DNA of 64,000 bases from Acidimicrobiales bacterium. GTDB taxonomy: Bacteria > Actinomycetota > Acidimicrobiia > Acidimicrobiales > CAIXPF01. The stretch lies in assembly GCA_041394365.1 (NCBI GenBank), contig JAWKIM010000015.1, positions 69,658 to 133,657 on the forward strand, given 5' to 3'. A model generated the notes under the pieces. The model was not told where the DNA came from. It saw only the letters and a program-made list of their open reading frames with translations, and did no database searches. A program made the position numbers and the translations under genes. This document shows, piece by piece, positions 11,181 to 19,765 of the stretch (within the stretch, counting starts at the first letter, position 1; each line of letters begins with the position of its first letter).

Positions 11181-11789
11181 ATGTCGAGCGCCTGGGCATC
11201 GTTGCGGACGTGGCCGGCGCGCCGCTGGCGCAGCGCGGTGCTGGCGGCGCTGGTGTCCGCCGTGGTCATCGCCCTGCCCACCGATCTGATCCCCAACCCC
11301 GTCTTCGGGCGTGACGTGCCGCCCACCGCTTGGTCCTGGCCGGTGCTGGCGGTGTCCTCGGTGCTGTCGGGCCTGCTGTTCGCCACCTACGTGCGCCGGG
11401 ATGACGCCGAGCTCGACGCCACCGGGCGCACCGGCCTGCTGGGCGGTTTCCTCACCTACCTGGCGGTGGGCTGCCCGGTGTGCAACAAGCTGGCGTTGCT
11501 GGCGCTGGGCTACTCGGGTGCGCTGCGCTGGTTCGCCCCGGTCCAGCCGTGGCTGGCGGGGCTGGCCATGGTGCTGCTCGCCTGGGCGCTCGTGCGTCGC
11601 CTGGCCAACGATGGTGCGTGCGCCGTGCGGCCGGCCCCCAGCCGACCGCCCGCTGAACCGTCGCCGGCGGATCAGAACTCCTCGACCCGGATGCGATCAG
11701 GGTCGAGCTCGCCGGTCTGTTCGAGGAGATCGGTGAGCGCCGCCCGCATCCACTCGGCGGCCTCGTCGGCGTCCAGTTCACTGCCGTAG
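11181..11789 (+). CDS. integral membrane protein with CPVC motif (hypothetical)
   Basis: Inner ATG of ORF 10908..11789: MSSAWASLRTWPARRW, four hydrophobic segments, LAVGCPVCNKLALLALG. The 3' end overlaps the convergent gene by 118 nt, so the true stop is uncertain. Confidence 0.5.
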   Translation: MSSAWASLRTWPARRWRSAVLAALVSAVVIALPTDLIPNPVFGRDVPPTAWSWPVLAVSSVLSGLLFATYVRRDDAELDATGRTGLLGGFLTYLAVGCPVCNKLALLALGYSGALRWFAPVQPWLAGLAMVLLAWALVRRLANDGACAVRPAPSRPPAEPSPADQNSSTRMRSGSSSPVCSRRSVSAARIHSAASSASSSLP

Positions 11790-12595: not shown

Positions 12596-13408
12596 ATGGA
12601 CCGTCCGACCGAGGACCACCTCGCCGACATCGAGCGCGACGGCTACACGATCGTGCACAACGCCTTCCCGCCGGAGCTGGCCGATGCGCTGGTGGCGGAG
12701 CTCGAACGGCTCGAGCGCGAGCTGGCCGTCGTGCCGGCCGGCAACTCCTTCGAGGGGTCGGCCACGTGGCGGATCTACAACCTGCTCGCCCGTGGGGAGC
12801 GGTTCCGGGAGGTCCCGCTGCACCCCGGTGTGCTGCCCATCGTCGAGGGCGTGCTCGATGCCGGCTGCCTCGTGTCGAGCCTCTCGTCGATCGCCATCGG
12901 GCCCGGCGAGGTGGCCCAACCCATCCACGCCGACGACGCGCTGCACCCCATCGCCCGGCCCCACGCCGCCACCGTGTGCAACAGCATGTGGGCGCTGACC
13001 GACTTCACCGAGGACAACGGGGCCACGCGGCTGGTGCCCGGCAGCCATCTCGCCGACCACACCCCGCCGTATGGCGAGCGACCGGCGTCGGTGCCGGCCG
13101 AGATGGCGAAGGGGTCCATCCTCGTCTGGCACGGTTCGCTGTGGCACGGCGGCGGTGCCAACCGCACCGACCGGCGGCGCTACGGCTTGGCCATGAACTA
13201 CTGCGCCGGGTGGATCCGCCAGCAGGAGAACCAGCAGCTGGGCATCCCCCTCGACGCGCTGGCCACCTTTCCGCCCCGGCTGCTGGAGCTGTGCGGCCTG
13301 GGCATCTACAAAGGCCTCGTGGGCCACGTCGAGCGGCGGACCCCGGCCGAGCACGTGCTGGGCGAGGACCGCATCGCTCGTCCCATGCTGTGGGACAAGG
13401 TGGGCTGA
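12596..13408 (+). CDS. phytanoyl-CoA dioxygenase (PhyH) family Fe(II)/2OG oxygenase
   Basis: ORF 12596..13408: IERDGYTIVHNAF, QPIHADD, TEDNGATRLVPGSH, WHGSLWHGGGAN. Confidence 0.9.
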   Translation: MDRPTEDHLADIERDGYTIVHNAFPPELADALVAELERLERELAVVPAGNSFEGSATWRIYNLLARGERFREVPLHPGVLPIVEGVLDAGCLVSSLSSIAIGPGEVAQPIHADDALHPIARPHAATVCNSMWALTDFTEDNGATRLVPGSHLADHTPPYGERPASVPAEMAKGSILVWHGSLWHGGGANRTDRRRYGLAMNYCAGWIRQQENQQLGIPLDALATFPPRLLELCGLGIYKGLVGHVERRTPAEHVLGEDRIARPMLWDKVG

Positions 13409-13476
13409 CACCGTCCGGCCGCGTGACCGGCCGCCTGCGCGAGCGCCTGATCGGGTTGCGGCCGGGGTTCGTGTGC

Positions 13477-13496
13477 GGGATACCGGTGGGTATCCC
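13477..13496. promoter_or_regulatory. 20-bp perfect palindrome GGGATACC-GGTG-GGTATCCC (operator-like)
   Basis: Read directly from sequence. 8-bp arms, 4-nt spacer, intergenic. Strongest member of the TACC-N4-GGTA family. Confidence 0.5.
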
Positions 13497-13662
13497 GGGA
13501 ACCCGTCGCGCTCGATTCGACGTCGATTCGGAATTGGTCGTGAGACACGAATTCCGGTCGCTTTTGGTGAGGTGTCGGGTCCCTGGCGTTGCCGGTGGAC
13601 ACCAGCGGTGGGCACCCGGAGCCCGTGGGTCGAAAGCGCCGAATCGAACTCGAATCGGCGCC
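13477..13662 (+). repeat. dispersed structured repeat, copy 1
   Basis: A 52-nt block (13499-13550) is 46/52 identical to the reverse complement of 18996-19047. Block 13637-13662 matches the reverse complement of 18888-18910. The two blocks are mutually complementary (CGATTCG..CGATTCGG / CCGAATCG..CGAATCG). Confidence 0.7.
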
Positions 13663-13717
13663 GATGGATGACCGATGGATGACCGATGGATGACCGGTGG
13701 GGTGGGGTGGGGTGGGG
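13661..13717 (+). repeat. tandem 11-mer (CCGATGGATGA)x3 followed by G-quadruplex motif GGGGTGGGGTGGGGTGGGG
   Basis: Read directly: 13661-13693 is three exact 11-nt units. 13699-13717 is four G4 runs separated by single T. Confidence 0.8.
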
Positions 13718-13813
13718 TTGCCCGGCGGCGGGCCGGCGGTGGCTGCGGGTGGCGACAGCGCCACGTCAGCGAGGCCACGGGCCGGCGACAGCGGCATCGC
13801 GCACGATGCGGCC

Positions 13814-14515
13814 ATGGCAACGACGACCGTCCCCCACCTCTGCGAGCTCGCCTCGTCCCCGGCCACCGGTCCGGCACCGGGACGGGCCCCTGCCCTCGGG
13901 CCGCTCCGCAACGAGCGGGCGGCGACCCGGCACCGCTGGCGCGTGCTGGTCGAGGACATCGCCTCGGCCACACCCCGTCGCGGCGCGGTGCGGTCGCTGC
14001 ACCGCCGGGTCGACCGTGCGCTGACGGAGCTGACCGCCCGGCTGCGGTGGGAGGACACGACGTTGCACCCCGCCCTCGCCGAGCGGCAGCTCGCCGCCCG
14101 GCCGTACGTGGCCCGCTGGACCGACGAGCACGACCACCTCCGGCGGCTCGTCCTGCCGTTGCAGGACGCCATGACGGTGTGGTCGGCCGCGCCGCACGCC
14201 GAGGCGGCGCAGGACGCAGCCCGGGCGGCCGCCGATGCGCTGCTCAGCGCCATCGCCGATCACGACCGTCGCGAGGAGGCGCGCACCCTGCTCTGGCTGC
14301 ACCGGCACTTCACCGCGGCCGACTGGTCCACCCTCCGGCCGTCCACACGTCCCCGGCGTCGGTGGCTGCTATCGTTCGCGCCGGCGGATCGCCACGCCGA
14401 ACCTCCATCCGACACCCACGCCGTCGGCTCGGGAGGCAAAGGGGACCTCGGGTGCCCGGCGGTGCGAAGCGACCGATCGAGGCCACCCGCCCGGGTGCCT
14501 GCACGCGTGGGGTGA
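13814..14515 (+). CDS. hemerythrin-like (HHE cation-binding) domain protein, putative
   Basis: Inner ATG of ORF 13697..14515: WTDEHDHLRRL and IADHDRREEARTLLWLHRHF resemble H/E metal-ligand helices. The C-terminal third is low quality. Confidence 0.4.
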   Translation: MATTTVPHLCELASSPATGPAPGRAPALGPLRNERAATRHRWRVLVEDIASATPRRGAVRSLHRRVDRALTELTARLRWEDTTLHPALAERQLAARPYVARWTDEHDHLRRLVLPLQDAMTVWSAAPHAEAAQDAARAAADALLSAIADHDRREEARTLLWLHRHFTAADWSTLRPSTRPRRRWLLSFAPADRHAEPPSDTHAVGSGGKGDLGCPAVRSDRSRPPARVPARVG

Positions 14516-14545
14516 GGTGCGGGCGCGGGCAGGAGTCCGATCGAG

Positions 14546-15217
14546 ATGACCACGCAGGAATCGTTCAAGAAGCGGGTCCGCGCCCGCATGGTGCACACCG
14601 GTGAGCGCTACGCCGCCGCCCGCCGTGTGCTGCTGGAACAAGCCCAGGCCCGCCGCGGCACCCCCCGGACCCGGGAGCGGGTGAGCGAACCGGAGCTCGA
14701 CGACGCCACGGTGCGGGCCGCCACCGGCCGGGACTGGGACGAGTGGTGCGACCTGCTCGACCGCTGGCCGGGGCGCGACACCGGCCACGCCGCCATCGCC
14801 GCCCACCTGCTGGCTGAGCACGGCATCGACAGCTGGTGGGCGCAGAGCGTCACCGTCGGCTACGAGCGCATCACCGGACGCCGGCTGCCCTACCAGCGAT
14901 CGGACGGCACGTTCACCGCCACCCGGTCGCGGACGGTGCCGGTGCCGCCCGAGCAGCTGCGCGCGCTCCTGCTCGATGCCGGGGCCCGCACCGACCTGCT
15001 CGGCGGGCTGCCCAGCGAGTTGCGCTCGCGGCCCACCTCGAAGGCGATCCGACTCGCCGTCGAGCAGGGGACGGTGCTCATCTCGCTCGACGTCACGGCC
15101 GACGGCCGCACGAAGGTGTCGGTGGCGCACGAACGCCTGCCGCAGCCCGATGACCTCGAGCGTTGGCGGTACTTCTGGGGCGAGTGGCTGGACGCCCTCG
15201 ACAGGTCCGCCGGCTGA
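14546..15217 (+). CDS. DUF4287 plus SRPBCC-like domain protein
   Basis: ORF 14546..15217: TGRDWDEWCDLLDRW..HAAIAAHLLAEHGIDSWWAQSVTVGYERITG is DUF4287-like. The C-terminal half is START/AHSA1-like and ends ERWRYFWGEWLDAL. Confidence 0.7.
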   Translation: MTTQESFKKRVRARMVHTGERYAAARRVLLEQAQARRGTPRTRERVSEPELDDATVRAATGRDWDEWCDLLDRWPGRDTGHAAIAAHLLAEHGIDSWWAQSVTVGYERITGRRLPYQRSDGTFTATRSRTVPVPPEQLRALLLDAGARTDLLGGLPSELRSRPTSKAIRLAVEQGTVLISLDVTADGRTKVSVAHERLPQPDDLERWRYFWGEWLDALDRSAG

Positions 15218-15226
15218 GGCCGGGCC

Positions 15227-17116
15227 TCAGACCGGTGCGGCGGGTCGGCTCGACCCGTCGGGCCGGTCGTCGAACTGGGTGCGGTACAGCTGCGCGTAGC
15301 GCCCGCCGCGGGCCAGCAGCTCCTCGTGGGAACCGAGCTCCACCACCGAGCCGGCCTCGAGCACGGCGATGGCATCGGCGCGCCGCACCGTGGACAACCG
15401 GTGGGCGATGACCAACGAGGTGCGACCGGCCAGGGCGGCGGTGAGCTCGCCGCACCGCCGCCTCCGACGACGAGTCGAGGTGGGCGGTGGCCTCGTCGAG
15501 GATCACCACCCGGGGTCGGGCCAGCAACAGCCGGGCGATGGTCAACCGCTGGCGTTCGCCGCCCGAGAGTCGGTAGCCGCGCTCGCCCACCACGGTGTCG
15601 AGCCCGTCGGGCAGGGCGGCCACCAGCCCGTCGAGGCTGGCGCTGCGCAGCGCCGCCCACAGCTCGTCCTCGGTGGCATCGGGCCGGGCGTAGCGGAGGT
15701 TGGCACCGATCGTGTCGTGGAAGAGGTGGCCGTCCTGGGTGACCACGCCGACGGTGGCGCGCAGGTCCTCGAAGGACACGTCGCGCACGTCGACCCCGCC
15801 GATGCGCACCGCGCCGGCGTCCACGTCGTACAGGCGCGGCACCAACGACGCCAGCGTCGACTTGCCAGCGCCGGAAGAACCGACCAGCGCCACCATCGTG
15901 CCGGCCTCGATGCGCAGCGACACGCCGTGCAGCACCTGCTCGGGGACGCGCTCGTCGAGCCGGGCCACCTCCTCCAGCGACGCCAGCGACACCTTGTCGG
16001 CGGCGGGGTAGGTGAAGCGCACCTCGTCCAGCTCCACCGCCACCGGACCGTCCGGTATGGCGGTCGGTCGGGCCGTCTCGGCCACCAGCGGTTCGAGGTC
16101 GAGCACCTCGAAGACCCGCTCGAAGCTCACCAGCGCAGCGACCACGTCCAAACGGGCGGAGGCCAGCGCGGTGAGCGGGCCGTACAGCCGGTTCAGCAGC
16201 AACGCCAGCGTGACCACGGTGCCGGCATCGAGCCGGCCGGTGAGGGCGAGGTAGCCGCCGAGCCCGTAGATGAGCGCCTGGGCCAAGCCCGACACGAGCG
16301 TCAGGGCCCGGAAGAACACCTCCATGGCCATCGCCGAGCGCACCCCGATGTCGCGGACGCGTCGAGCTCGCCCGACGAACTCGCCCAGCTCCTGGGCCGG
16401 GCGGCCGAACAGCTTGACCAGCGTCGCCCCGGGGCGGAGAAGCGCTCGGTCATCTGCGAGGTCATCGCCGCGTTGTGCTCGGTGGCCTCGCGCTCGAGCG
16501 CGCCGAAGGTCCGGCCGACCCGCCGGGCGGGGATCACGAACAACGGCAGCAGCACCAGCGCCACGGCGGTGATCAACCACGACAGCCGGGCCATGACGGC
16601 CACGGTGAGGGCCAGGGCGATCCCGTTGGTGACCACCCCCGACAGCGCCGAGGTGAACGCCCGCTGGGCGCCGATCACGTCGTTGTTCAGCCGCGAGACG
16701 AGCGCGCCGGTGTGGGTGCGGGTGAAGAACGCGACGGGCATGCGCTGCACGTGGCCGTACACGGCCCGGCGCAGGTCGAGGATCAGGTCCTCGCCCAGGC
16801 GGGACGATTGGAGCCGTTCGAGCAGGCCGATGCCGGTGTCGAGCACGGCGACGGCAGCGAACAGCGCGGCGATGCCGATGACGACCGAGGTCGCCCGGCC
16901 GGCGACGATGGCATCCACGGCACGCCCGGCCAGCACCGGTCCGGCCACACCGAGCACGGCCGAGGTGGTGGACAGCGCCAGGAAGGCGGCGATGGTGCGG
17001 CGGTGGGGCCGGGCGAAATCCCGGATGCGCCGGAGGGTGTCCGGCCGCCTCGGCCGCCGGGGCCCATCGGGCTGCATGGCGCTCTCCAACGCCGACCACA
17101 GGTCGAGCTCGCTCAT
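15227..17116 (-). pseudogene. ABC exporter, fused permease/ATPase (MsbA/MdlB-like), two frameshifts (near 16435 and 15450)
   Basis: N-terminal TMD in ORF 16301..17116. The middle (ATLVKLFGRPAQE ... GSSGAGKSTL Walker A, LSGGERQR signature, [10 protein letters not shown] Walker B) is in the frame of ORF 15093..17099. The C-terminus [13 protein letters not shown] is in ORF 15227..15415. Confidence 0.8.
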
Positions 17117-17200
17117 GACGCCGACCGTAGAACCTCGAGCGGCCTTGAGGTCAACCCGTTTGTGTGGTGGGGCGGGTTGGGCGCGGGCCGGGGCGGGCGG

Positions 17201-18177
17201 TCAGGCGCGGGCGATGACCAGTTGGCGGCTGGCCCGGATGACCGCGCCCGGATGGCTGAGCGTGGCGTGCTCGACGTGCTCACCGTGCTCGACGTGCTCA
17301 CCGTCGAGCAGGGCGGCCAGGCGGCGAGGTCGCCGGCATCGGCGTAGCCGTCCAACTGGCGCACGGTGCGCCGGACCTGTCCGGCGGCGTAGCGGCGGGC
17401 GTCGTCGTCGAGCGGGCCGGGCAACTCCTCGTGCACGACCTCGTCCACCACCACCTCGAACCCGGCCGCCCTCACCGCCGCGCCATACCCAGTGGTATCT
17501 GCGGCGCCGGCGCGGGCCACCACGCCGGGCACGGTGGCCCGCAGGTCGACGAACCAGCGCTCCCAGGCGGCGTCCAACCGGGCCCACAGCCCGGGACGGC
17601 CGAGCTCGACCGATTCGGGCAGCACCCGCACCGGGGTGGCCCGTTCCACGATGGCCAGCAGCCCGCCCGGGCTGAGCAGCGCGCGCATGCGGCGCAGCGC
17701 ATCGACCTCGTCGCCGACGTGGTGCACCACCAGCGACGCCCACAGCAGGTCCGCCCGGCCGAGGCCGTCGATCCCGTCGGGCAGTTCCACCAGCCGGCGC
17801 TCGACCCGACCGGTGAGGCCCAACTCATCGGCCCGTGCGACGGCCCGGTCCAGCATGGCGTTCGAGCCGTCGGCGGCCACCACGGTGGCGTTGCCGAAGC
17901 GGGTGGCCAGCAGGCAGGTCCCCACCCCCGGGCCGCAGCCCACGTCGAGCAGGCGGCGGACCGTGAGGTGGTGGCGATCGCACTCGCCGGCCACCCGGTC
18001 GACCAGGCGGGCCACCAGCCCGCTGAGCATCGTCGCCTCCTGCTCGGCGAAGCGGACCATCTCGGGGGTGTCGAAGTGGACATGGTGGTGCTGCCGGCGG
18101 CGGGCGTCGTGCTGGTGCTGGTGCTGATCGTGCTGGTGCTGGTGCTGGTGCTGGTGCTGGTGCTGGTGGTCGGCCAT
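17201..18177 (-). CDS. class I SAM-dependent methyltransferase with His/Gln-rich N-terminal tail; probable 1-nt frameshift near 17320
   Basis: ORF 17113..18177: MADHQHQHQHQHQHQHDQHQHQHD, LLDVGCGPGVGT (motif I), LLSPGGLLAIVE. The likely C-terminus LLDGEHVEHGEHVEHATLSHPGAVIRASRQLVIARA lies in the neighbouring frame and ends at 17201. Confidence 0.75.
18109..18168. repeat. hexanucleotide microsatellite (GTGCTG)n = (CAGCAC)n on the coding strand, encoding the HQ repeat
   Basis: Read directly: gtgctggtgctggtgctgatcgtgctggtgctggtgctggtgctggtgctggtgctggtg. Confidence 0.9.
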
Positions 18178-18197
18178 GCCGGCAGCCTACGGAGGGC

Positions 18198-18791
18198 ATG
18201 CCGTCGGCGAATAGGCTCTTGCCGATGACGCAAGACCCGGCCATCGAGCAGACCGCCCGGACCCGTTTGCGCAGCCTGCGGGTGGCGCGCGGTTGGTCGA
18301 TCGACGAACTGTCGAAGCGCTCGCACCTGAGCGCGTCGACGATCAGCCGCATCGAGACCGGCCATCGGCGGCTGGCCCTCGATCACCTGGTGACGCTGTC
18401 CCGGGCGCTCGACACCACGGTCGACGAGCTCCTCGTGGACGATGCCGACGTCGACGTGGTGATCCGGCCCACCCGCGACCGGGCCAACGGCCTCACCTAC
18501 TGGCTGCTCACCCGGGCCGACGATGCCTCCGGCCGCGTGGTGGCCAAGCTGGAGCTGCCGGTGCGCAAGCGGCCGCCGGAGCCGCGCCTGCACCCGGGCC
18601 GGGACTGGTTCTACGTGCTCGACGGTACGGTGCAGCTGCACCTCGGCGGTCGGGAGCACCTGGTGCAGCGGGGCCAGGCAGCCGAGTTCGACACGATGAC
18701 CCCGCACTGGATGGCGGGCTTCGGTGGGACGGCCCAGGTGCTCACCATCTTCGACCGCCACGGGGAGCGGGCTCACCTGCGGCCGCATTGA
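18198..18791 (+). CDS. XRE-family HTH transcriptional regulator with C-terminal cupin domain
   Basis: ORF 18198..18791: LRSLRVARGWSIDELSKRSHLSASTISRIETGHR (HTH_3), cupin part HPGRDWFYVLDGTVQLHLGG. Divergent from the methyltransferase. The true start may be the inner ATG (MTQDP). Confidence 0.85.
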   Translation: MPSANRLLPMTQDPAIEQTARTRLRSLRVARGWSIDELSKRSHLSASTISRIETGHRRLALDHLVTLSRALDTTVDELLVDDADVDVVIRPTRDRANGLTYWLLTRADDASGRVVAKLELPVRKRPPEPRLHPGRDWFYVLDGTVQLHLGGREHLVQRGQAAEFDTMTPHWMAGFGGTAQVLTIFDRHGERAHLRPH

Positions 18792-18887
18792 GCACGCCGT
18801 CCACCCACGCCGGGCTCCTGTTCAGCTGAACCGCTTCGTTCCGTGATGCGGATCGGCGCGTGCGCCTACCGGCCCGGCTCCTTCACC

Positions 18888-19069
18888 GGCGATTCGACGG
18901 CGATTCGGCGATCGCCGGCTCAGCGGGAGGGCCGCCACGAGGGGCGTACAGAGATGACCGTCCGACCTGCCTGCCGTACGCTCGGCGGCCAAACATCGTG
19001 TCTGATGACCGGTTCCGAATCGACGGCGAATCGAGCGCGACGGGTTCGGAGGACCCACCGTCGGCCACC
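18888..19069 (-). repeat. dispersed structured repeat, copy 2 (inverted relative to copy 1)
   Basis: Reverse complement aligns with 13477-13662, with conserved terminal blocks and a divergent ~85-nt centre. The leading palindrome is degenerate here (GCCGACGGTGGGTCC). Confidence 0.7.
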
Positions 19070-19111
19070 CGACGCCCCCGACAGCACAAGCCGCGAACCG
19101 GGGGCGGCGGC

Positions 19112-19765
19112 TCAGGCCCCGAGCGGGCGGGCGGGCACCCCGACGACGGTCGTGCCGTCGGGGACGTCGCGGTGCACCAGCGATCCTGCGCCCACCACCA
19201 CGTCGGCGCCGATCGTCACCCCGGGCAGCACCGTGGCCCCGGCGAACACCGTGGAGCGCGCCCCCACCGTCACGCCCCCGCACAGCGTGGCCGACGGGCT
19301 GAGGGTCACGTAGTCGCCCAGCACGTCGTCGTGGCTGACCACGGCGCCGGTGTGCACCTGGCAGTGCTCGCCCAGCGTGATGTTGCCGGTCAGCCGGGCC
19401 CCGGGCGAGACGATGCAGCCGACACCGATGCGCACCCACGGACCGACGGTGGCGTCGGCGTGCACCAGCGTGGCGGGGACCAGGCCCCGGGCGAGGCCCT
19501 CCTCGACCCAGGCCCGGTGGGCGCCATGGTCCCCGGCGGTCACGGCCAGGTGGGCCCCCGCCGGCGCCTGCACCGCGTCGAGCGTCTCGCACAGTGGCAC
19601 CTCGAGCCGGTCGGCCAACTCGGCGAGCAGCGCGCCGGTGCCCACCAGGGCCACGACCTCATAGGCAACGGCGCCGGGCCGGGGTGACCACACCGTGCCG
19701 ATCACCTCGGACGCGGCTCCGGAGGTGGCGGCGATCACGAGCGGGGTGCGGGCGGCAGACGTCAT
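19112..19765 (-). CDS. NeuD/PglB-type sugar O-acyltransferase (left-handed beta-helix, hexapeptide repeats)
   Basis: Last 217 codons of the giant ORF 19112..23530, from MTSAARTPLVIAATSGAA. Hexapeptide region IGVGCIVSPGARLTGNITLGEHCQVHTGAVVSHDDVLGDYVTLSPSATLCGGVTVGARSTVFAGATVLPGVTIGADVVVGAGS. Confidence 0.8.
   Translation of the reverse strand: MTSAARTPLVIAATSGAASEVIGTVWSPRPGAVAYEVVALVGTGALLAELADRLEVPLCETLDAVQAPAGAHLAVTAGDHGAHRAWVEEGLARGLVPATLVHADATVGPWVRIGVGCIVSPGARLTGNITLGEHCQVHTGAVVSHDDVLGDYVTLSPSATLCGGVTVGARSTVFAGATVLPGVTIGADVVVGAGSLVHRDVPDGTTVVGVPARPLGA

Follow-up and report, generated by a model that had tools for sequence, protein, structure and literature searches.

The window analysed here, a stretch of 64,000 nucleotides (nt) from an Acidimicrobiales bacterium (assembly GCA_041394365.1, contig JAWKIM010000015.1, positions 69,658 to 133,657) with a G+C content (GC) of 72%, carries two inverted copies of a non-coding repeat in which two conserved end blocks, each with a pair of short heptamer boxes, enclose a more divergent centre. 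Copy 1 sits between a PhyH gene (plus strand, TGA at 13406-13408) and a hemerythrin-like gene (plus strand), and copy 2 between a convergent XRE-cupin gene (plus strand, stop at 18791) and a hexapeptide acetyltransferase gene (minus strand, TGA at 19114-19112). The original prediction, made from the DNA letters of this locus, had described the repeat pair, the PhyH and acetyltransferase stop codons (13408 and 19112) and a bracketed module of five genes, and all of these hold: Pfam recognises the DUF4287, ABC exporter, methyltransferase and XRE-cupin genes in place, and the hemerythrin gene in the orthologous locus of a metagenome-assembled genome (MAG). A profile hidden Markov model (HMM) of the repeat family widens the two envelopes, giving the following features (N4, four-nucleotide spacer).

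13477-13681, plus strand: copy 1, envelope (nhmmer, 14-copy family profile, E = 1.9e-49)
13499-13550, plus strand: copy 1, left block, with box 1 CGATTCG at 13513-13519, N4 at 13520-13523 and box 2 at 13524-13530
13551-13633, plus strand: copy 1, centre, diverged but homologous, of fixed length, with two CACC-N3-GGTG palindromes
13634-13662, plus strand: copy 1, right block, with box 3 CGAATCG at 13640-13646, N4 at 13647-13650 and box 4 at 13651-13657
18863-19069, minus strand: copy 2, envelope (nhmmer, 14-copy family profile, E = 1.2e-36)
18996-19047, minus strand: copy 2, left block, with box 1 at 19033-19027 and box 2 at 19022-19016
18885-18913, minus strand: copy 2, right block, with box 3 at 18907-18901 and box 4 at 18896-18890

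The left blocks of the two copies share 47 of 52 positions, one more than the 46/52 first counted for this shared block, and their likeness stretches to 63 nt at 84% identity. A 35-nt core of the left block has two sites only in the 64-kb window and none in 100 dinucleotide shuffles, and the family HMM finds no further copy, complete or degenerate, in the window. In the left block of copy 1, box 2 is followed by GGAA and then by a small conserved palindrome, TTGGTC-N4-GACACGA. The distal blocks (13634-13662 versus 18913-18885), likewise part of the prediction, are identical at 21/29 positions and have the form CGCCGAATCG-N4-CGAATCG in both copies. Complementarity between the two blocks of one copy is present as well, the left block of copy 1 matching the reverse complement of its own right block at 22/29 positions, but it is partly automatic, because the heptamer CGAWTCG is its own reverse complement save for the middle base; in a repeat search all four boxes of the window copies group as one direct-repeat family.

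The repeat extends far beyond this pair. A scan for the exact left-block pattern in one genome per species (185,579 species) returned 38 matches, 37 of them scattered chance hits and one a true third copy with the same architecture as the window copies, on JBFWNR010000025.1 (L037), a 4.5-kb high-GC contig binned in a Vicinamibacterales (Acidobacteriota) MAG. The scan of JGI and GenBank metagenome contigs added 13 more true copies (L044-L071), all on contigs of 72-75% GC. The family alignment (A2) comprises 14 copies, and spacings were counted over 15 complete copies. The L037 contig, whose copy adjoins an aromatic-ring hydroxylase gene, is probably mis-binned; its prefix JBFW is also that of the two related Acidimicrobiia MAGs described below, which suggests that they come from the same project.

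Copy number was estimated as the summed k-mer depth of the left block against that of unique flanks, from metagenome contigs on five copy-bearing loci. The left block reached a depth of ~5800 against ~10 for unique flanks in run X1 (1970 against 12 in a second measurement), 32,800 against 135 in run X7 (56,500 against 130 in a second measurement) and 1500-1640 against 5.7 in run X3, and the four metagenomes so examined yield ~150-450 copies per genome equivalent, varying with the identity threshold. The contigs flanking the copies have the same depth as the organism of the window, and the copies therefore belong to that one genome; in the landfill runs X7 and X8 this organism attains ~130x depth. 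Assemblies break ~30 nt into the left block. Seven copies form a subfamily with centres 76-89% identical, in which likeness reaches ~60 nt further left and ~40 nt further right, and this centre, of the L070 type, is present in ~20-40 copies by depth. No match to the element was found in searches of plasmids, phages and viral contigs; Rfam 15 has no match in the window at the gathering score, and permissive searching of 13300-19300 gave only chance-level matches (E > 0.3). Nothing relevant came up in the searchable literature under the box motif, 18-mers or Acidimicrobiia repeats. This is thus a repeat family not described before, lineage-restricted, non-coding and dispersed in a few hundred copies, and the further loci and the copy number support, in kind, the earlier suggestion of a dispersed element like the repetitive extragenic palindromes (REP) and their mosaics (BIME) or like miniature inverted-repeat transposable elements (MITEs).

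The element is ~170-250 bp long and is organised around four quasi-palindromic heptamers, CGATTCG-N4-CGATTCG on the left and CGAWTCG-N4-CGAATCG on the right. In the family alignment the left block has the consensus (C/T)TCGCGCT-CGATTCG-N4-CGATTCG-GAA, followed by TTGGTC-N4-GACACGA; the asymmetric centre of ~80 nt includes a GTCGA island and two CACC-N3-GGTG palindromes, both conserved; and in the right block CGAWTCG-N4-CGAATCG leads into a (C/G)-rich tail that ends in GAAGG. The paired boxes lie 11 bp apart within each block, and the distance from box 1 to box 3 is 127 bp in 14/15 complete copies, copy 2 of the window alone having 126; the gap between boxes 2 and 3 is correspondingly 109 nt, and 108 in window copy 2. 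In the left block, alignment columns 48-61 and 65-75 are invariant in the 14 copies. Box 4 is invariant in 14/14, box 3 reads CGAATCG in 11/14 and CGATTCG in 3/14, and the right boxes, which lie outside the retrieval pattern, show 3 changes in 196 positions. A short form occurs at L067:824-925, where the ~102-nt centre is swapped for the 19-nt sequence CGGATATGCCCCACGGGGT; it has single-copy depth in runs X7 and X1.

Mean pairwise identity is 0.90 in the left block, 0.58 in the centre and 0.82 in the right block. The centres of the two window copies are only 0.39 identical and had been called unrelated; across the family this does not hold, since centre identity between subfamilies is 0.50 in register versus 0.30 in shifted controls, from which it follows that the centres are homologous. 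At ~50% identity between subfamilies, the centres nevertheless contain no insertions or deletions. Each element has five short conserved palindromes with a hypervariable middle of 3-4 nt, which fits either local hairpins or sites for a dimeric protein. The N4 spacers vary freely with no compensation, and a genuine double change, CG to GC, is seen in one CACC/GGTG palindrome. Short G/T-rich tandem repeats of variable kind frequently adjoin the element.

The genes around the copies have little in common. Neighbours of 13 copies, checked by Pfam, are unrelated metabolic and regulatory genes, and the flanking gene ends comprise fifteen 3' and six 5' ends. Seven copies have both neighbours assigned, five lying between convergent genes (a count that includes L054, L059 and L063, whose downstream open reading frames (ORFs) were called from third-codon-position GC (GC3) and carry no Pfam support) and two in sense between co-directional genes. 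The L071 copy is antisense between co-directional genes, and four copies, L050, L052 and L066 among them, turn their left block towards a gene start. There is, then, a preference for terminator-side intergenic DNA with no fixed orientation to transcription; the earlier idea of an element of 3' untranslated regions (UTRs) is borne out only as a tendency towards gene 3' ends (15/21 flanking ends).

At L066:1167-1297, 131 nt just left of the left block are missing in the X7 and X5 strain, which places the element there ~40 nt from the start codon of an alpha/beta-hydrolase gene. In the metagenome contigs L059 (reverse) 1128-1595 and L068 699-1167 the element copy and its right flank are 98.5% identical, and the two contigs diverge wholly from 64 nt left of box 1, through either copy-to-copy recombination or an assembly chimera at the repeat boundary.

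Further candidate interpretations of the sequence were rejected. The left block holds on its reverse strand a small ORF (GTG-Ser-His-Asp-Gln-Phe-Arg-Ile-Asp-Val-Glu-Ser-Ser-Ala) that stays open in most copies; at one of its positions all four Ser codons occur, a pattern suggestive of wobble variation. Substitutions, however, fall 53/51/56 over the codon phases, hence with no three-base periodicity, and a profile of this frame has no match in 5.8 billion predicted proteins. A palindrome or long hairpin over the full length was discarded, the mirror complementarity of the centre (0.39-0.46) being equal to that of the cross-copy control. SARP/OmpR-type 11-bp direct repeats and an actinobacterial LexA box, which the blocks were considered to resemble, were dropped for want of a -10 element at the right distance and for a poor half-site match.

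The position at gene 3' ends is one of the observations that would fit a function in RNA, in which the element would be transcribed in 3' UTRs and an outer stem of ~25 bp, boxes 1 and 2 pairing with 4 and 3, would serve as terminator, mRNA stabiliser or RNase III site; RNA-level roles of that kind have been shown for REP, ERIC and Correia elements. This outer stem can form in all copies, with 97.6% of alignment cells paired, most copies have folding z-scores between -1.6 and -5.7, and metatranscriptome contigs contain the element, although these may be multi-copy DNA carry-over, because the neighbouring genes there have zero depth. One-sided changes in the stem are mostly G-U on the plus strand (15 G-U versus 2 A-C cells), but as ~6 versus 2 independent events this excess is not significant. 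The compensatory-change check weakens the RNA reading: of the 21 pairs of the outer stem 14 are invariant, five have one-sided changes and none a two-sided change, the N4 spacers do not covary, and CGATTCG at box 3 in 3/14 copies breaks a pair. The centre has neither a conserved fold nor self-complementarity, internal folds vary from copy to copy, and neither strand folds better than the other; when copy 2 is folded together with its flanks, its minimum-free-energy structure leaves the outer stem unused (z = -0.35). Consensus scans found no promoter and no U-tract terminator, and the absence of an Rfam match and the variable orientation described above likewise speak against a transcript-borne element, which we regard as improbable.

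Comparison of strains bears on whether the inverted pair delimits a mobile unit. The PhyH protein of the window is 99% identical to that of two 'Acidimicrobiia bacterium' MAGs, and the contigs of these MAGs (L072 and L073) are collinear with the window at 98.4-99.4% identity, keeping both copies and the five genes, as do landfill metagenome strains at ~98.5% identity. After these, the nearest PhyH homologues (83% and 79%) have different gene surroundings, which are not syntenic with the window and lack the element. Runs holding the element come from activated sludge, wastewater, landfill, digester and manure metagenomes. L072:11081-11177, and the same coordinates of L073, hold a 91-nt tandem duplication of the right half of copy 1 and a flanking 11-nt repeat, orthologous to window ~13592-13682 and absent from the window, which makes the site structurally polymorphic among strains. 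In L072, an apparent 227-nt 'insertion' within the hemerythrin gene proved to be a scaffold gap, with 100 N at 11664-11763 and 127-nt duplicated ends.

The two copies had been proposed as possible boundaries of a cassette; in a mobile cassette they would be the functional ends, as recombination sites or composite-transposon arms. They are inverted, 5.2 kb apart, around five functionally mixed genes. Against this, the repeat is not unique to the pair, hundreds of copies lying elsewhere and solo beside unrelated genes, and no module-less allele was seen in the two MAGs or the landfill strains, in which module and copies are syntenic. The GC of the module equals that of its flanks, and no recombinase, transposase or integrase, was found among the ~30 ORFs of the window scanned, in line with the earlier statement that none is present. 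An apparent joint from 13555 to 19016 was another genomic copy aligning to both elements. The repeat also departs from integron cassettes with attC sites: no integrase was found, the ends carry motifs other than RYYYAAC/GTTRRRY, the window copies are inverted, and at unrelated loci the repeat stands solo. If copies lie 10-30 kb apart, as the depth-based estimate gives, a second one within 5.4 kb is unremarkable, being expected in about a third of cases. A cassette is thus very improbable, and the five bracketed genes are probably ordinary chromosomal genes between two independent insertions.

These results favour, as the probable nature of the family, a non-autonomous dispersed repeat of the MITE, REPIN (paired REP) or Correia type whose ends are recognition sites for a protein or form recognised hairpins. 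Three parts of this reading are inferences of ours: that the element moves in trans, what kind of protein recognises it, and that helical phasing is the reason for the fixed length. The element would be, or would have been, amplified in trans by an enzyme reading the end blocks, which, as terminal inverted sequences of ~27 nt with two CGAWTCG each, could be read either as duplex sites or as single-stranded CGATTCG-N4-CGATTCG hairpins. Copying would continue only in lineages with intact boxes and an intact end-to-end spacing, a restriction that would explain the invariant boxes, the free N4, the diverged centre devoid of indels and the existence of subfamilies, and copies would pile up mainly in intergenic DNA at gene 3' ends as the least harmful place. 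At 11 and 127 bp (about 12 turns), the four boxes lie on one helical face, and their strict spacing suggests one protein assembly touching both ends at once; in so short an element the synapsis of the ends may well depend on phase and length, which would hold the length constant in copying lineages.

Several observations weigh against this interpretation. Thirteen copies compared at consistent offsets showed no direct repeat that would indicate a target-site duplication, a negative that is weak because the outer boundary of the element is itself uncertain. No empty site was found among metagenome contigs on five loci, only artefactual joints, and the window copies and those of L066, L067 and L070 are present in all strains seen; these strains are at least 98.4% identical, and since the copies are old (centres 10-50% diverged), strains at 98-99% identity cannot reveal insertions. 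By the same centre differences the family may be inactive. Neither a transposase nor a longer element ending in the same blocks turned up in the window or next to 13 copies. Invariance of the left block is in part a product of construction, because the 15 copies were retrieved with an exact left-block pattern, and a host function could explain equally well why resident copies conserve boxes and length so strongly. A low-depth contig of landfill run X6 joins 13460 to 13717, skipping the extended copy 1, with only 26 nt on its shorter side; a rare allele, empty or deleted at this site, and an alignment artefact could both account for it, and it is not interpretable.

A host function could take the form of four phased CGAWTCG boxes bound by a nucleoid-associated, looping or wrapping protein, the copies being kept by selection for chromosome organisation or local regulation and their spread by transposition being ancient or irrelevant. 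Boxes that stay invariant around freely varying, uncompensated 4-nt spacers, and distances of 11 and 127 bp maintained in 14/15 copies across ~50% divergent, indel-free centres, are what such a protein would leave, as are the further conserved palindromes of the centre (CACC-N3-GGTG twice, one with the double change) and the lack of any sign of recent mobility. Subfamilies and a several-hundred-fold amplification require a copying process in any case, however; the elements lie mostly between convergent genes, where there is little for regulation to act on, no candidate binding protein is known, and palindromes with free middles are equally expected of hairpins. Both the selected host site and the ancient or irrelevant spread that goes with it appear rather unlikely as the whole account, and are compatible with the preferred reading of a trans-mobilised repeat rather than exclusive of it.

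A narrower form of the preferred, trans-mobilised repeat may also be considered, namely a REPIN-like system in Actinomycetota, in which a population of ~170-bp elements would be inherited vertically and kept by a single cognate protein; this is a tentative proposal of low probability. Equally tentative is the nature of that protein, possibly a transposase, HUH or other, that has been domesticated, or an architectural factor of the host, reading two CGAWTCG pairs, as hairpins or as sites, at a distance of exactly 127 bp.

Among known systems, REPINs are REP doublets that form hairpins and are mobilised by RAYT transposases in Pseudomonas fluorescens SBW25 (Bertels & Rainey 2011, PMC3116915); they consist of two inverted REPs around a spacer more conserved in length than in sequence, with spacings of 71 and 110 bp, occur in hundreds of extragenic copies and can adopt alternative 'long hairpin' and 'clover' folds (PMC3116915). 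The element described here resembles them in its two inverted pairs of short imperfect palindromes, its spacer of fixed length (109 nt in 14/15), its hundreds of extragenic copies and its lack of coding capacity, and in that each unit can fold alone, as in the 'clover', or the ends can pair. REPIN spacers, on the other hand, are self-complementary and often show compensatory changes (PMC3116915), and its own spacer has neither property. Its unit, moreover, consists of two CGAWTCG heptamers and lacks a 5' motif of the GTAG type, there is no RAYT gene in the window, and its host belongs to an actinomycete class and not to the proteobacteria. REPINs are nevertheless the closest described organisation.

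In size, length of terminal repeats, copy number and lack of a known transposase, the element comes closest to the Correia elements (CREE/NEMIS) of Neisseria. These are ~100-160 bp long with terminal inverted repeats of ~26 bp; their hundreds of intergenic copies account for 1-2% of the genome and are in many cases co-transcribed, they have long and short internal variants, and no cognate transposase is known for them. They also have a TA target duplication, an IHF site and promoter-like ends, none of which was found in the element, and there is no sequence relation. With MITEs the element shares terminal inverted repeats, a length under 300 bp, the absence of coding sequence, subfamilies and a high-copy intergenic distribution, but not, as far as seen, a target-site duplication, a parent insertion sequence (IS) with the same ends or insertion polymorphism; its ends are built of internally repeated heptamers and its length is unusually strict. 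BIME/REP and ERIC sequences of enterobacteria are likewise dispersed and palindromic, lie at gene 3' ends or between convergent genes, and are protein-bound or act on mRNA stability. REPs, in contrast, are single hairpins of 35-40 nt in mosaic clusters, and in ERIC it is the central inverted repeat that is conserved, whereas the present element conserves its ends and leaves its centre free. The element is consequently a new family of a known kind and a member of no named family, and to our knowledge the geometry of four phased boxes with a non-palindromic spacer of fixed length has not been described for REP/REPIN, Correia or IS-derived MITEs.

As far as we know, dispersed repeats of the REP, REPIN and Correia type are well studied in Proteobacteria and hardly in Actinomycetota. 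In this abundant, uncultured wastewater and landfill lineage of Acidimicrobiia the repeats are break points of short-read assemblies and can cause chimeric joins and mis-binning, as in the contig placed in a Vicinamibacterales MAG; knowledge of the family aids assembly and binning and keeps pairs of copies from passing as the boundaries of cassettes or islands. With invariant boxes, fixed spacing and a free centre, the family offers a clean natural experiment for finding out what is read by a protein that copies or binds it, and the partner protein, if found, would tell whether a long-term association of the REPIN type exists beyond Gram-negative bacteria.

The surroundings of individual copies show further features. 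At 13661-13718 (plus strand), abutting copy 1, Tandem Repeats Finder reports CCGATGGATGA in 3.6 units followed by GGTGG/GGGGT in 4.6 units, of G-quadruplex type, and tandem repeats also precede other copies: an 18-nt unit repeated four times in L045, GGTTGGTG-type repeats in L037, L052 and L070, and (CTGA)n in L067. From the PhyH stop to the element there are two G+C-rich hairpins, at 13427-13465 (CCGGCCGC...GCGGCCGG) and at 13477-13496 (GGGATACC-GGTG-GGTATCCC). A metatranscriptome contig of the PhyH region stops at 13460, which may be the true end of the PhyH transcript, upstream of the element. Within the bracketed genes, the methyltransferase gene (17113-18177, minus strand) contains at 18086-18168 a hexanucleotide repeat of the (CAC CAG)n type that encodes an N-terminal His/Gln-rich tract; huge, spurious metagenome depth is found there because of its low complexity, and among strains the repeat has a 12-nt length polymorphism.

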